Positions 12,534 through 15,317 of a DNA stretch of 64,000 bases are shown in pieces. The DNA is taken from IMG/VR virus record IMGVR_UViG_2531839524_000004; one strand, 5' to 3'. The first letter of the stretch is position 1. Every line of letters begins with the position of its first letter. The notes beneath the pieces were generated by a model. The model made no database searches. It was not told where the DNA came from and worked only from the letters and a program-made list of their open reading frames with translations. Made by a program: the position numbers and the translations under genes. The stretch comes from a virus (Duplodnaviria > Heunggongvirae > Uroviricota > Caudoviricetes).

Positions 12534-13311
12534 AAACATATTGATAAGTATTTACTTACTTATCTTTTGTGTATAAGATGACTTTGTTTTCGTTGAGACG
12601 CGACTGTTTGAACTTAAATACAAGTGCAAACGAAGAAGTCTATCTGGCAGTAGCCTAATAAGCCAAACACCAGCGAGGTCAGTTTCCAGCCTCGTTACCG
12701 AAATGGGACACACTGAGCGAGTGGGATTGCAGAACGCAGGAGGGAACATTCATGTTCCCTCCGATGAAGTAACAGAATGGGCGGTTGGTATATTTTCAAC
12801 TCCATATGACTCCCGGATTCTTAGCCACTGACCGCCCATTCTGTTACGTCATTTTGTTCAATTATGTCGTTTATACTGGGTTAAAAAGCGGCGACGTAGC
12901 CCGGCTGGTATGGTTAGCCAGCACACAACGTTGAGGCCATTACATTTTTATCAATTCTAAGGTTCTATTCACAGAGATACCGGCGAGCGTTGATATGTAA
13001 CATGTTGGGCAAACATTCAATCGGAGTAGTGGCCTCAACGTTGTGAAGACGGGATTGTTGTGTAGGTTTAACCACTGTTGCCATTGGTGCCTGTTTTCAC
13101 AACAAATGATTCCATACATCACATTGTATAAATTACAAAGTAGGTGCTGTCCTCAGAAACATCATCTACTTAAAGATTTTGCCTTCTACTATTGAGCGAA
13201 GTCGAAAGCGTCTGGCACTAACGAAAAGTGCAAGTAGCGGTGCGTTTCCTGGCAGAAACTAAACCGTCGCGATTGGCACTGTTGAGTAATAAATACTGGC
13301 AGTGCTGAATT

Positions 13312-13386
13312 GATGGTGTAGCTCAGCGGTAGAGCAGTTGGCTGTTAACCAACTGGTCGGTGGTTCGAATCCACCCACCATCGCCA
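13312..13386 (+). tRNA. tRNA-Asn (anticodon GTT)
   Basis: Hand-folded cloverleaf: acceptor GATGGTG/CACCATC, anticodon loop CTGTTAA, T-loop TTCGAAT, encoded CCA. Confidence 0.85.
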
Positions 13387-13391
13387 ATTTA

Positions 13392-13478
13392 GGGGAGTTA
13401 GTCCGTAGAGGTAGCGGTGTAGACTGTAAATCTACTGTCATGGCGACTCGGGTGGTTCGACTCCATCACTCCCCACCA
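13392..13478 (+). tRNA. tRNA-Tyr (anticodon GTA), long variable arm
   Basis: Acceptor GGGGAGT/ACTCCCC, anticodon loop CTGTAAA, long variable arm, encoded CCA. Confidence 0.8.
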
Positions 13479-13482
13479 AATT

Positions 13483-13558
13483 GCCGGTTTAGCTCAGTTG
13501 GTAGAGCGCCTGCCTTGTAAGCAGGATGTCAGCGGTTCGAGTCCGTTAACCGGCACCA
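13483..13558 (+). tRNA. tRNA-Thr (anticodon TGT)
   Basis: Acceptor GCCGGTT/AACCGGC, D-arm GCTCAGTTGGTAGAGC, anticodon loop CTTGTAA, T-loop TTCGAGT, CCA. Confidence 0.85.
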
Positions 13559-13775
13559 ACACAACAGGAAAGAGCATTGAAACCCGCCGAGACTGCCCTG
13601 TTTTAAGCGTAAGTCCGTGCAAACGTCATACAGTGCTCTTTTCGTTGTGGTTGATGCGCAGACTGATGCGCGGAAAGAAATGCCCCAGCGACACACGAGG
13701 CGAGTTCACACACTGCAATGCAGTCAGTAGCCGGGGTCGCTAAGCCGGAGATCAGTACCGGTAACCACAACAATT

Positions 13776-13862
13776 GGAGAGTAGGGAGCATGGTGCTCAA
13801 GCGGTCTTGAAAACCGTCCCATTGTGCAAACGATGATGGTTCGATTCCATTACTCTCCGCCA
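13776..13862 (+). tRNA. tRNA-Ser (anticodon TGA), long variable arm
   Basis: Acceptor GGAGAGT/ACTCTCC, anticodon loop CTTGAAA, long variable arm, T-loop TTCGATT, CCA; D-arm pairing slightly irregular. Confidence 0.7.
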
Positions 13863-14016
13863 GACACAGCGTTGAGCGGTTTGGCCTTTTAATCAACTCG
13901 ATTAAGACTCCGCTAACATAAACCAGACCGCTCAACGCTGTGATAGATAATTACGGCAGACGTTCTTAACCATAGCTTGCTAACATCCTAGCAACACTTT
14001 TTTCAGCGCAAAATTC

Positions 14017-14041
14017 AAAGGGGCTTCGGCCCCTTTTTTGT
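14017..14041 (+). terminator. rho-independent terminator closing the tRNA cluster
   Basis: GGGGC-TTCG-GCCCC followed by TTTTTT. Confidence 0.8.
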
Positions 14042-14054
14042 TGAACAGTGCAAT

Positions 14055-15317
14055 TTACTTTGCATAGTCGCCCAATTTTAATATTTCGCGCTTATATTCA
14101 TTAACCATGCTACTGGATTCAGTATAAATTCGATTTAAAAGATTATCGTTATCTTTATTTTCATTTATCTTAATTAGTGCTAATTTATATTCATAGTCAT
14201 CAAATGCCACAATTAAATGGTGGCCTGGGATTATATCTTCGTCACTCTTAAAGTATATATCTTCAAGTATGTAATCTAGTTGATTAGATTTTCTTTTCTC
14301 GATGTAATCTTCAGCCATAGCTATTACATCATTCCTGTCATTTAACCTGTTTTTTTCGGAAGGCACATCTTCGTAATGTTGCACGATTGAACAACCAATA
14401 AGGCGTGGGATGTAAACGTCAAAATGAGTAACTCTATCATTCGCGGTTTTAAGTAGTTCCTCAAAGTAGTTTCTTACATGTAAAGGCAACTTCTCAAAGT
14501 AATCATTAATTATAGGAGAACAAGGAGTTTTATAATTCATAAGAACCGACGGTACGAGCTTTGGGTGTCGAAACATCCAGTCCCTTTTAACGTCCGATGG
14601 AACATAATAACTTTTAATGATATTATCAAAATAATTTATCATTCGAGATTTGAATATTTTGTTGAATCTAAGGTTTATGAATGTATCCAGATAAGGCATA
14701 TTTGAATAAGCATCATCAAAAAATATTTCATCATTGAAAAAATCATATTTATTCAATAAACAACACAGTTTTTCCGAATTAATATGTTCACAATAATCGA
14801 TTTTTAATCCAAAGATAGCAATGATCAACTTCATCTGAGGTGGGATTTTAAAAATTAATTGTGACACATACGCTCTTTTTTCCTTGAGACATTCCCCATC
14901 AATATAAAATGAACCATCCACATACTCAAATATATTAATAATATGCTTCACATACTGTATTACCTCATGCTGTCTTACCAATGGATAATATAGTCTATGT
15001 AACTCATCGCTGTTTAAATTAATTTTGTGTTTATCGATAATTTGTTTTGCAAGAAGACATAACTCATCATGTTGATTTAATAAGGAATCAAACCATTGTT
15101 TAAATGCACTCTTTCGCATTTCGAACAATGATTCAGTTGTTAATTGAAGGGCTGAAAAAGCTGCTTTTGCACTTTTTCTCGCTTCGTAGGCATTCCATGC
15201 TGTTGCTATAAAAGCAAATGCTGTAGCCAATGTTCCAACAGTTTGACCATTTAAAACAACCCAATCCCAAAAAATGACGGTGAGCAGTAGTATAATAATG
15301 AAAATTAAAAAAGGCAT
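14055..15317 (-). CDS. membrane-anchored hypothetical protein, strongly AT-rich accessory gene
   Basis: 420 aa; two N-terminal TM helices; base composition much more AT-rich than flanking genes; isolated on minus strand. Confidence 0.6.
   Translation of the reverse strand: MPFLIFIIILLLTVIFWDWVVLNGQTVGTLATAFAFIATAWNAYEARKSAKAAFSALQLTTESLFEMRKSAFKQWFDSLLNQHDELCLLAKQIIDKHKINLNSDELHRLYYPLVRQHEVIQYVKHIINIFEYVDGSFYIDGECLKEKRAYVSQLIFKIPPQMKLIIAIFGLKIDYCEHINSEKLCCLLNKYDFFNDEIFFDDAYSNMPYLDTFINLRFNKIFKSRMINYFDNIIKSYYVPSDVKRDWMFRHPKLVPSVLMNYKTPCSPIINDYFEKLPLHVRNYFEELLKTANDRVTHFDVYIPRLIGCSIVQHYEDVPSEKNRLNDRNDVIAMAEDYIEKRKSNQLDYILEDIYFKSDEDIIPGHHLIVAFDDYEYKLALIKINENKDNDNLLNRIYTESSSMVNEYKREILKLGDYAK

Follow-up and report, generated by a model that had tools for sequence, protein, structure and literature searches.

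A transfer-messenger RNA-like tag RNA with no detected tRNA-like domain heads the non-coding RNA operon of an SSU5-like phage-plasmid

What is encoded in the long stretches of a phage tRNA cluster in which no gene can be recognised? The question is raised by a 64,000-nucleotide (nt) stretch of DNA from the IMG/VR virus record IMGVR_UViG_2531839524_000004 (the whole stretch is called the window here, and coordinates count from its first letter), which is an SSU5-like phage-plasmid with 97–99% identity to the Escherichia phages Cyrano and CMS-2020a and to ~110-kb Escherichia coli plasmids. The original prediction, made from the letters alone, had pointed out long inverted repeats and no convincing open reading frames (ORFs) in a gap of about 770 bp ahead of tRNA-Asn, as well as about 220 bp of unassigned sequence between tRNA-Thr and tRNA-Ser, and had suggested stable small RNAs, processing structures or possibly recombination sites. 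The two gaps measure 778 nt (12534–13311) and 217 nt, and all the listed repeats are present, at most 1–2 nt from where they had been placed and far beyond chance. We found that window ~12580–14036 (+ strand) is the non-coding RNA operon of this phage-plasmid and that its first and most conserved product, at 12586–~12740, is a tag RNA resembling transfer-messenger RNA (tmRNA), made up of a leader, a short hairpin, a tag frame and two H-type pseudoknots. The tag frame (12626–12661) and the two pseudoknots past it had been overlooked. Judged from its sequence, this element appears to be a copy of the message half of tmRNA without the tRNA half, with a 5′ end complementary to the tmRNA of the host.

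The first clue to this identity was that positions 41–147 of the gap, used as a query, matched non-coding DNA in the tRNA clusters of Felixounavirus and Mooglevirus. Like a tmRNA, the element has an internal frame with a resume codon and a stop: in the window it reads GCA AAC GAA GAA GTC TAT CTG GCA GTA GCC TAA TAA on the + strand, that is, ten codons for ANEEVYLAVA and two stops, to be compared with ANDNVFLAVA and two stops in phage Mijalis and with ANDENYALAA in E. coli ssrA. A scan of IMG/VR for GCAAACGA-N10-CTGGCAGTAGC returned at least 120 loci, to which BLAST searches added others. Eighty-five distinct core sequences hold 14 tags, namely a first set with ANEEVYLAVA, ANEDTYLAVA, ANEDAYLAVA, ANEDSYLAVA and ANEEMYLAVA, a second with ANDNQYLAVA, ANDTQYLAVA, ANDNVFLAVA, ANDNTFLAVA, ANDEQFLAVA and ANDDQFLAVA, and a third with ANDDVVLMAA, ANDDLMMVAA and ANDDYKLAAA; phage P7 adds a fifteenth, ANDDLMMAAA. 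Every tag begins with AN[DE] and terminates in LAVA, LMAA, MVAA, MAAA or LAAA, the LAVA ending being partly imposed by the search pattern and the other forms having come from BLAST.

Substitutions are synonymous or conservative in the tag frame only (GAC/GAT, GAA to GAY, TAT/TAC/TTT/TTC, GCC/GCT/GCG, CAG/CAA). The +1 frame (MQT...WQ and a stop) is also open in all members; it was rejected, as the substitutions that are conservative in the tag frame are radical there. Upstream, the tag frame is closed by an in-frame stop with no start before the tag, by a TGA 18 nt upstream in SSU5, Enterobacter and pMT1 and by a TAG in Mijalis, so that the in-frame ATG at 12578 of the window is not a conserved start. 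Immediately ahead of the resume codon lies AAAUACAAGU (12610–12625, +), the shortened equivalent of H1, a hairpin found before the tag in other classes. Three positions do not vary there, A(-4), A(-3) and U(-1) (columns A41, A42 and T44 of A1, an alignment of 30 diverse members), A(-4) corresponding to A86 of E. coli tmRNA, the main determinant of the resume frame (PMC2481249). Changes of this kind are those that a tmRNA template selected for its peptide would leave behind. The tag frame appears to evolve like a translated tag, which is not the same as direct evidence of translation.

Two consecutive pseudoknots follow the stop codons. In pseudoknot a, stem 1 pairs AGCGAGG with CCUCGUU (12672–12678/12690–12696, +) and stem 2 pairs the loop UUCCA with UGGGA (12684–12688/12704–12708, +); both covary. 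Among 50 members from outside the SSU5-like group, stem 1 is 100% paired with three covarying pairs (UA:33/CG:17, GC:34/AU:16, AU:49/GC:1) and stem 2 is 100% paired with two (GC:33/AU:17, AU:44/GC:6). Stem 1 of pseudoknot b, CACAC/GUGGG (12709–12713/12721–12725, +), has one A.G mismatch in the window, where relatives have GUGUG; in the same 50 members it is 100% paired with two covarying pairs, and it occurs as CGCAC/GUGUG, CACAC/GUGUG, CGUAC/GUAUG, CGCAU/AUGUG and CAGAC/GUCUG. Shuffled control sets reached at most 95–97% pairing and slid registers 17–72%. The second stem of pseudoknot b is swapped wholesale between classes (GCCCG/YGGGC, GCCCAC/GUGGGC, CCCUGA/UCAGGG, GGCGGGAG/CUCCCGCC); it is seen only in the non-SSU5 classes and is not evident in the SSU5-likes, where the region (12709–12738, +) includes the conserved AUUGCAGAACGCAGG. 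Upstream of the tag, where pseudoknot PK1 of tmRNA would stand, stands the hairpin H1 (91.6% paired, shortened in the window), which is not a demonstrated pseudoknot.

The 778-nt gap as a whole is predicted to fold well below the energies of shuffled sequences (z = -6.6 for the + strand, -7.4 for the - strand), and it is present at 77–80% identity, and never annotated, in SSU5, in plasmids of Enterobacter, Salmonella, Citrobacter, Klebsiella and Cronobacter, and in Yersinia pestis pMT1. ORFs of 30–65 amino acids (aa) do occur in it; the pattern of conservation speaks against coding, since among relatives the stems are kept, the loops vary and the indels are of 1–2 nt. The compensatory changes that had been proposed as a check were indeed found, together with a marked asymmetry between wobble and A.C pairs, when 26 diverse SSU5-like sequences were aligned, folded with RNAalifold and counted over eight local helices (85 pairs). 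In this set 99.4% of the cells are paired (reached by 0/500 shuffles; slid registers 34–52%), and both-sided changes affect 12 pairs and 67 cells (levels reached by 0/500 to 6/500 shuffles). The stem cells contain 289 G.U pairs versus 4 A.C pairs, which means that pairing is upheld on the + strand only and that the molecule is a single-stranded + strand one, most simply an RNA co-transcribed with the tRNAs.

How might such a template come to be used? The 5′ leader (12586–12609, +) points to a possible partner. Its layout is GUUUUCGU (12586–12593, invariant), 2–14 nt, and GCGAC (12600–12604, nearly invariant), to which most classes add UUUGCGG.CUUUUUA; the core GUUUUCG is invariant in the 30 members of alignment A1. 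The leader is antisense to E. coli ssrA (RefSeq genome sequence) at ACGAAAAC (codons 3–5 of the host tag), at GUCGC (positions -3 to +2) and at UAAAAAGCCGCAAA (the 3′ strand of PK1), and RNAduplex always placed the leader duplex on ssrA nt ~64–108. Some of this complementarity is to be expected from the homology between the 3′ strand of H1 and host tmRNA, and the comparison was therefore made with blocks 1 and 2 of the leader: these pair at a mean of -19.3 kcal/mol with positions -5 to +22 of host ssrA versus -9.1 kcal/mol with the element's own region, the host being the better partner in 85/85 cases. Codons 3–6 of the element vary, and GUUUUCG never does. In the phages HC6 and Mijalis, consensus sigma-70 promoters lie directly upstream of the element (TTGACA-17-TAGATT and TTGACA-17-TATAGT, respectively), which puts GUUUUCG within a few nt of the 5′ end of the transcript.

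The strength of the predicted pairing differs between classes. Against a background of 704 tiles of 363 nt cut from the window, some of the better ones being the element's own locus, tiles as good as ssrA numbered 0/704 for the lambdoid, HC6, IME11 and K751 leaders, 3/704 for the P1-like one, 5–29/704 for the window and the main SSU5-like forms, and 10–159/704 for L073, the Felix-type leaders and L007, a divergent SSU5-like one. The antisense seed fits host ssrA better than background or its own region, with a significance that is strong in the lambdoid phages, HC6, IME11 and K751, modest in the class of the window, and weak or absent in the Felix-type forms and L007. When full ssrA was cofolded with the core, the net gain was -7.5 kcal/mol for the window and -8.9, -17.0, -13.2 and -12.0 kcal/mol for other representatives, as compared with -1.6 to -4.4 kcal/mol for shuffled leaders.

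Covariance models see the same resemblance at low score. Rfam tmRNA matches fall on the element in every class, all below threshold (tmRNA_permuted 15–33 bits, alpha_tmRNA 21 bits). The match to RF00023 scores 15.2 bits versus a gathering threshold of 47 and covers model positions 51–311 only, that is, all but the tRNA-like ends, and the best tmRNA scores are 22.7 bits in the window and 33.1 bits in IME11, versus 47 for RF04321; nowhere was the gathering threshold of RF00023, RF01849–51 or RF04321 reached. ARAGORN, in turn, reads the tag frame as a tmRNA tag in Mooglevirus, at two Moogle-type loci.

Taken together, these data lead us to consider it very probable that the element is derived from tmRNA and is a functional structured RNA. 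The explanation that we favour, and hold to be on balance probable, is a non-coding RNA operon led by a tmRNA-derived tag RNA whose leader pairs with host tmRNA. That the element acts on trans-translation through this pairing is a model we put forward tentatively, and that it does so specifically by substituting the template, forming a hybrid two-piece tmRNA, would be a more doubtful step. In the model, the leader would anneal to the 3′ strand of PK1, positions -5 to -1, the resume codon and codons 2–6 of host tmRNA. Either the phage template would then be tethered to the tRNA-like domain of the host with SmpB, so that rescued ribosomes would resume on the phage tag, or host tagging would simply be blocked; the former would be preferred, since only translation explains the conservation of the tag at the peptide level. 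On annealing, the element's own H1 would open, and ribosomes that the host alanyl-tRNA-like domain and SmpB have rescued would encounter the phage resume codon; the tags on stalled proteins would be rewritten from ...YALAA to ...LAVA, LMAA or MAAA. The pseudoknots of tmRNA are known to be replaceable, and the frame is set locally by the five nt that precede the resume codon (PMC2481249).

Several observations weigh against a role in trans-translation. The pairing of the leader with ssrA is a prediction, and for the class of the window it is a modest one: -26 kcal/mol with 13/704 tiles as good, besides the small net gain given above. In the Mijalis cofold the gain is -4.1 kcal/mol and the leader is not used. 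The complementarity of block 3 follows trivially from the homology between the 3′ strand of H1 and host tmRNA; in the SSU5-likes GUUUUCGUU has a possible intramolecular partner at 13220–13227; and host tmRNA is invariant across these hosts, which leaves no co-variation between leader and target to be read. A small-RNA sequencing catalogue of Y. pestis has no small RNA entry at the pMT1 locus. Above all, the tRNA-like domain of tmRNA (a 7-bp acceptor stem, a T-arm and (N)CCA) was not found. ARAGORN at default settings calls no tmRNA in the window, on 129 sequences it calls one only at the two Moogle-type loci, and with relaxed settings it gave only pseudo-calls amid many false positives; Rfam at E ≤ 5 found no tmRNA or tRNA-like domain beyond the tag region in the whole 64-kb window, and none in six loci. 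Neither did we find, in the window or in class representatives, a T-arm followed by the complement of the element's 5′ end, beside T-loops or CCA. Without a tRNA-like domain, translation of the tag has no demonstrated route, and by definition the element is not a tmRNA.

Could the missing half be encoded elsewhere in the phage? In such a genuine two-piece (permuted) tmRNA of the phage, the acceptor piece would be a tRNA-like module or a T-arm loop hairpin of the tRNA cluster, and trans-translation would be independent of the host. The tag frame conserved as a peptide would be expected of it, a permuted call is made by ARAGORN in Mooglevirus with a T-arm and ACCCUUC-G-CCA ~600 nt upstream of the tag, canonical T-arms (GGUUCGAAUCC) occur in several lambdoid and P1-like modules, and a kissing-loop scaffold described below has the topology of a tRNA. 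Yet the Moogle call spans three intact tRNA genes and is absent from the Felix O1-type and other classes, and a search of the window and of class representatives turned up no acceptor piece that could pair with the element's 5′ end. A scan for T-arms with GGTTCRANTCC also gave no credible partner. The scaffold was found in only 24/130 loci by a strict motif search, and not in the SSU5, Klebsiella and Felix loci examined, which rules it out as an obligatory acceptor partner. Nor was there a candidate acceptor stem with the G3.U70 alanine pair: among the candidates read by eye (the scaffold stem GUUGUGG/CCACAAC and T-arm hairpins) none has G.U at 3:70, and apart from the four tRNAs no tRNA-like gene was detected in the 64-kb window. 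We regard a complete phage tmRNA in two pieces as unlikely. A more ordinary view, that the region does nothing other than punctuate and process a tRNA operon, with stable by-products and a tag frame that is the fossil of a captured tmRNA fragment, also seems improbable to us. In its favour, near-perfect stems of 20–25 bp are typical RNase III substrates and tRNA-shaped modules are typical RNase P punctuation; near-identical genomes differ by the gain and loss of modules, hypervariability marks the loops and inserts, and no tRNA-like domain was found. A fossil would not be expected, however, to keep an open 10-codon frame with its stops, A(-4) and conservative or synonymous changes across six or more groups and at least 85 variants, nor two pseudoknots maintained by compensatory change, nor, in 85/85 cases, a leader whose match to host tmRNA exceeds that to the element itself. 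For the hairpins I1, I2, I3 and I4 taken alone, processing stays plausible.

The idea that the inverted repeats act as DNA, as recombination sites, as signals for replication or single-strand initiation, or as termini of cassettes similar to miniature inverted-repeat transposable elements, goes back in part to the original prediction, and we now find it very improbable. It would account for the three hairpins with common termini CACA[A/G]C...G[C/T]UGUG, for a Thr–Ser cassette that is in the window and not in Cyrano, for the ends of homology in Klebsiella plasmids (12939, left arm of I2) and in pMT1 (13047, right end of I2), and for the integrase gene 2 kb downstream, and a single-stranded + strand DNA would be compatible with the pairing asymmetry. 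A duplex cruciform, by contrast, would need both strands, and the ratio of 289 G.U to 4 A.C reflects pairing on the + strand only; all the elements are co-oriented with the tRNAs and stand behind promoters in other phages; and the same modules are carried by strictly lytic phages that lack an integrase and replicate in unrelated ways. The wobble asymmetry, the variable loops and the presence in lytic phages therefore favour RNA over recombination sites. Finally, the tag frame could be the end of an ordinary small protein gene running from the ATG at 12578 to the TAA at 12656 (26 aa, MTLFSLRRDCLNLNTSANEEVYLAVA), a reading to which we give hardly any credence. The window does offer that in-frame ATG, and the peptide would have a degron-like tail; but the conserved -10-like box overlaps this ATG, which lacks a Shine-Dalgarno sequence. 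Ahead of the GCA codon a stop closes the frame before any start is met, TGA in SSU5, Enterobacter and pMT1 and TAG in Mijalis, and in most relatives the upstream frame is shifted by an indel of 1–2 nt.

The tag RNA with its anti-tmRNA leader is not confined to the window. At least 85 sequence variants and 15 tag variants are spread over six or more phage groups (P1/P7, SSU5, Felix O1, N4-like, Vi1-like and lambdoid), and none is annotated. Carriers comprise SSU5-like plasmids including Y. pestis pMT1; P1-like plasmids and P7, where the C1 operator Op(ban) precedes the element and tRNA-Asn follows it; Felixounavirus and Mooglevirus, in their tRNA clusters; lambdoid phages, in which it is flanked by Q and the holin gene; and Taipeivirus (Ackermannviridae), Gamaleyavirus IME11 (Schitoviridae), HC6-like 47-kb phages and a Rosenbergiella contig with the tag ANDDYKLAAA. 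In P7 (L256, 766–1451) and a P1-like plasmid (L134, 1470–1500) the element lies in the leader of the C1-repressed ban/tRNA operon. A terminator-like hairpin (GCCCATCTTCGGGTGGGCGTTTTTT) stands immediately ahead of it in P1/P7, and likewise in Rosenbergiella (L170); in P1/P7 the hairpin might act as an attenuator, or it might form the 3′ end of a different small RNA. We also considered whether GUUUUCG is a homologue of the tmRNA D-loop motif GGUUUCGAC and discarded the idea: the scan of genome contigs with GTTTTCGN{10,40}AAATGCAAACGA was too loose, and nearly all of the 80 loci examined were chance matches, with one real member (Rosenbergiella) and one true alphaproteobacterial tmRNA among them. 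Regarding the permuted call in Mijalis (L008, 924–1672; the feature coordinates of this record are offset by ~58 nt from its sequence), its acceptor piece consists of the T-arm GAAGGUUCGAUUCCUUC and ACCCUUC-G-CCA followed by GAAGGGU. This piece and the tag ~600 nt downstream are separated by three tRNA genes; the piece is not conserved in Felix O1-type genomes and may be a real, separate RNA.

What else does the operon of the window contain? Past the pseudoknots comes I13, the 11-bp perfect hairpin of the original prediction (12739–12749/12752–12762, +), in which 6/11 pairs have changed on both sides among the 26 relatives (helix 3). The predicted 17-bp repeat pair is real and extends to a 22-nt stem at 95% (12764–12785/12831–12852), its 17-mer beginning at 12769 instead of 12768; it forms the long hairpin I1 (12764–12852, +; helix 4), with a stem of 22–25 bp and a 45-nt variable loop, whose 24 pairs are 99.4% paired and show mostly G-C to G.U variation, pairing being kept on the + strand only. 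Two conserved hairpins predicted by RNAalifold, UUAUGUCGUU/GGCGACGUAG (12862–12899, +) and GCUGGU/GCCAGC (12904–12922, +), form the helix 5/6 set and are mostly invariant, with little covariation. The 16-bp pair likewise proved to be a 20-nt stem (12924–12943/13026–13045), the complement of the quoted 15-mer lying at 13031–13045 and not at 13029. This is the long hairpin I2 (CACAACGUUGAGGCC..., 12924–13045, +; helix 7), with 20 bp, an 82-nt variable loop and three pairs changed on both sides; it belongs to a family of hairpins with CACAAC...GUUGUG bases and has a paralogous form in P1-like plasmids.

The 3′ part of the conserved ~730-nt RNA (13040–13311, +) contains the stem GUUGUGAAGACGGG/CCUGUUUUCACAAC (13040–13103, +), the conserved AUGAUUCCAUACAUC (13106–13120, +) and two terminal hairpins ahead of tRNA-Asn. 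GUCUGGC (13210–13216, +) might form a long-range helix with 12662–12668, and AACGAAAAGUGCAAG (13220–13234, +) one with 12582–12594. These predicted helices, ~600 nt apart and with one-sided changes only, would close the ~730-nt SSU5-type RNA. Formation of the helix 12582–12594/13220–13234 would compete with the duplex proposed between the leader and host tmRNA.

The tRNA genes follow, all on the + strand: tRNA-Asn(GTT) at 13312–13386, tRNA-Tyr(GTA) at 13392–13478 and tRNA-Thr(TGT) at 13483–13558, each found by both ARAGORN and Rfam, and tRNA-Ser(TGA) at 13776–13862, found by ARAGORN. The top Rfam model for tRNA-Ser is tRNA-Sec, at 44.8 bits under a threshold of 47; a disguised tRNA-like domain was ruled out here, as the gene folds into a normal class II cloverleaf with a UGA anticodon. 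Its variable arm carries GTGCAAACGATGA, near-identical to the start of the tag frame, GTGCAAACGAAGA (12624–12636), which is probably a coincidence. The spacer between tRNA-Thr and tRNA-Ser, where an extra 27-nt imperfect stem was noted (13553–13579/13631–13657), is made of two modules. One is the hairpin LH or I4 (13560–13649, +), CACAACAGGAAAGAGCAUUG...CAGUGCUCUUUUCGUUGUG with a variable loop; hairpins of this type (...AAGAGCAUUG-loop-CAGUGCUCUU...) stand directly 3′ of the tag element in lambdoid, HC6, IME11, K751 and Felix-type phages, and some of their loops contain canonical T-arms. The other is a tRNA-shaped scaffold with the closing stem GUUGUGGUU/AACCACAAC (13644–13771, +), enclosing the hairpins GCGCA-GACUGA-UGCGC (13656–13671, +) and GCCGG-AGAUCAGUA-CCGGU (13744–13762, +), whose loops are complementary (ACUGA/UCAGU) and covary (GCUGA/UCAGC vs ACUGA/UCAGU). 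Its 14 variants combine constant arms with unrelated hypervariable inserts of 30–170 nt, and its stems show compensatory changes in the P1-like plasmid copy (L134). The scaffold, which also occurs in L129–L131, has no Rfam entry; it might represent a separate family, with a role perhaps in display or in processing.

Past tRNA-Ser comes I3 (CACAGCGUUGAGCGG..., 13865–13942, +), a 20-nt hairpin (13865–13884/13923–13942) that had been called related to the repeats upstream and is a paralogue of I2; I3, I2 and the P1-like copy have the common terminus CACA[A/G]CGUUGAG. The wider pattern had escaped notice: I2, I3 and I4/LH all have CACA[A/G]C...G[C/U]UGUG bases and variable loops, and represent recurrent module families. 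No module family matched Rfam, and the Thr–Ser spacer matched only unannotated regions of enterobacterial phages in a phage database and no annotated phage RNA such as T4 rnaC/rnaD. In the 97–99% identical Cyrano (L001, 4166–4175) the 217-nt spacer with LH and the scaffold is missing, as is tRNA-Tyr, and tRNA-Thr and tRNA-Ser are 8 nt apart; modules are thus gained and lost quickly, and the RNA modules behave as mobile or rapidly exchanged cassettes. Constant stems, variable contents and a position between tRNAs suggest a role in processing or stability, so that I13, I1, I2, I4/LH, I3 and the kissing-loop scaffold are probably modular elements of this kind, co-transcribed with the tRNAs. RNase III-type stems and RNase P-type punctuation could cut the polycistronic transcript into tag RNA, tRNAs and small RNAs. 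The original interpretation is thus partly borne out. The hint at stable small RNAs or processing structures fits, as the region is structured, non-coding and co-oriented with the tRNAs and its modules have homologues in the tRNA clusters of unrelated phages; it gave no specific identity.

At the borders of the operon, a DNA ligase gene and three small ORFs lie upstream, all on the + strand. The perfectly conserved palindrome ATAAGTATTTACTTACTTAT (ATAAGTA-TTTACT-TACTTAT; 12544–12563, +), kept in SSU5-like relatives, is a candidate repressor operator that may control the RNA operon, and a -10-like TATAAG (12572–12577, +) aligns with the -10 of the consensus promoters of HC6 and Mijalis. No consensus sigma-70 match was found for the operon in the window; we infer from these signals a putative promoter at 12544–12577. 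An intrinsic terminator at 14017–14036 (+) is the probable end of the operon. Directly past it, in an AT-rich segment, a 420-aa ORF on the - strand (14055–15317) fills the slot held by an abortive-infection gene in a Klebsiella relative, and is a candidate defence or cargo gene; Pfam gave no match for it or for a neighbouring 96-aa ORF. The segment beyond the RNA/tRNA block varies, with AbiH in the Klebsiella plasmid, a porphyrin biosynthesis gene in SSU5 and the 420-aa ORF in the window. In pMT1 the homology stops near the 3′ end of I2 (L004, 2007–2019, equivalent to window ~13047), and the caf1R-caf1M locus of the F1 capsule begins ~10 nt past the end of the RNA homology. By comparison of these genomes, the 3′ end of the RNA block looks like a hot spot for cargo insertion.

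Why has this element gone unannotated in textbook phages (P1/P7, relatives of Felix O1, N4-like and lambdoid phages) and in the plague plasmid pMT1? Annotation pipelines based on ARAGORN and Rfam miss it. No paper was found with any of the six tag strings searched, nor anything linking tmRNA to Felixounavirus or SSU5 in this sense, and the template-only family appears to be undescribed in the literature searched, which did not include the P1 genome paper. tmRNA is regarded as a single, universal device of bacteria in which the tRNA-like and mRNA-like parts are always together, and a widespread template-only version would reveal a new viral route into ribosome rescue and protein quality control. 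If the template were indeed substituted, the system would amount to an inter-species two-piece tmRNA spread by horizontal transfer among at least six enterobacterial phage families, including P1, SSU5/pMT1, Felix O1, N4-like and lambdoid phages. The long 'empty' spacers of phage tRNA clusters also gain an identity, and at least three recurrent families of RNA modules are missing from Rfam.

Set beside known systems, the region looks like a new template-only variant of tmRNA with an anti-ssrA leader amid an array of recurrent RNA modules, its function being one that we infer. With bacterial tmRNA (SsrA, RF00023) it shares the GCA resume codon, a 10-codon AN[DE]... tag with a hydrophobic, Ala-rich C-terminus and one or two stops, A(-4), a helix directly past the stop codon, consecutive H-type pseudoknots and a weak, consistent Rfam similarity. 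Unlike it, the element has no acceptor stem or T-arm and so cannot be charged or enter the A site alone; it has the H1 hairpin in place of PK1, scores at most 33 bits versus 47, and is antisense at its 5′ end to the template of the host. The stable RNAs 'species 1 and 2' of T4 (rnaC, rnaD) are non-tRNA RNAs co-transcribed and processed with the T4 tRNAs; no sequence similarity to them was found. Phage anti-small RNAs or 5′-seed antisense small RNAs, such as the prophage-encoded AgvB and AsxR of enterohaemorrhagic E. coli, have a conserved 5′ end complementary to an abundant host regulatory RNA; here, in contrast, the proposed target is tmRNA and not an Hfq-dependent small RNA, and the element carries its own copy of the module of its target. 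The two-piece tmRNAs of alpha- and beta-proteobacteria and cyanobacteria (RF01849–51, RF04321) give the best Rfam matches (33 bits, IME11) and also have their template on a separate RNA base-paired to the acceptor part, but there a single gene supplies both pieces and the 5′ acceptor strand is part of the coding one, whereas the only convincing pairing partner found for the element is the one-piece tmRNA of the host. A 2014 survey of RefSeq plasmids and viruses found ssrA only in mycobacteriophages, and the tmRNA surveys consulted require complete 5′–3′ genes. Phage tmRNAs are known from cluster C mycobacteriophages and Bacillus phage G, and mycobacteriophage DS6A has an RNA with the tRNA-like domain only (PMC4131195, PMC11915505), for which inhibition of the endogenous tmRNA upon expression in E. 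coli has been reported (PMC11915505). In these cases too, phages carry parts of the trans-translation RNA beside tRNA genes. Those RNAs are either complete or the tRNA-like domain alone, and the element described here is their mirror image: the template and its pseudoknots alone.

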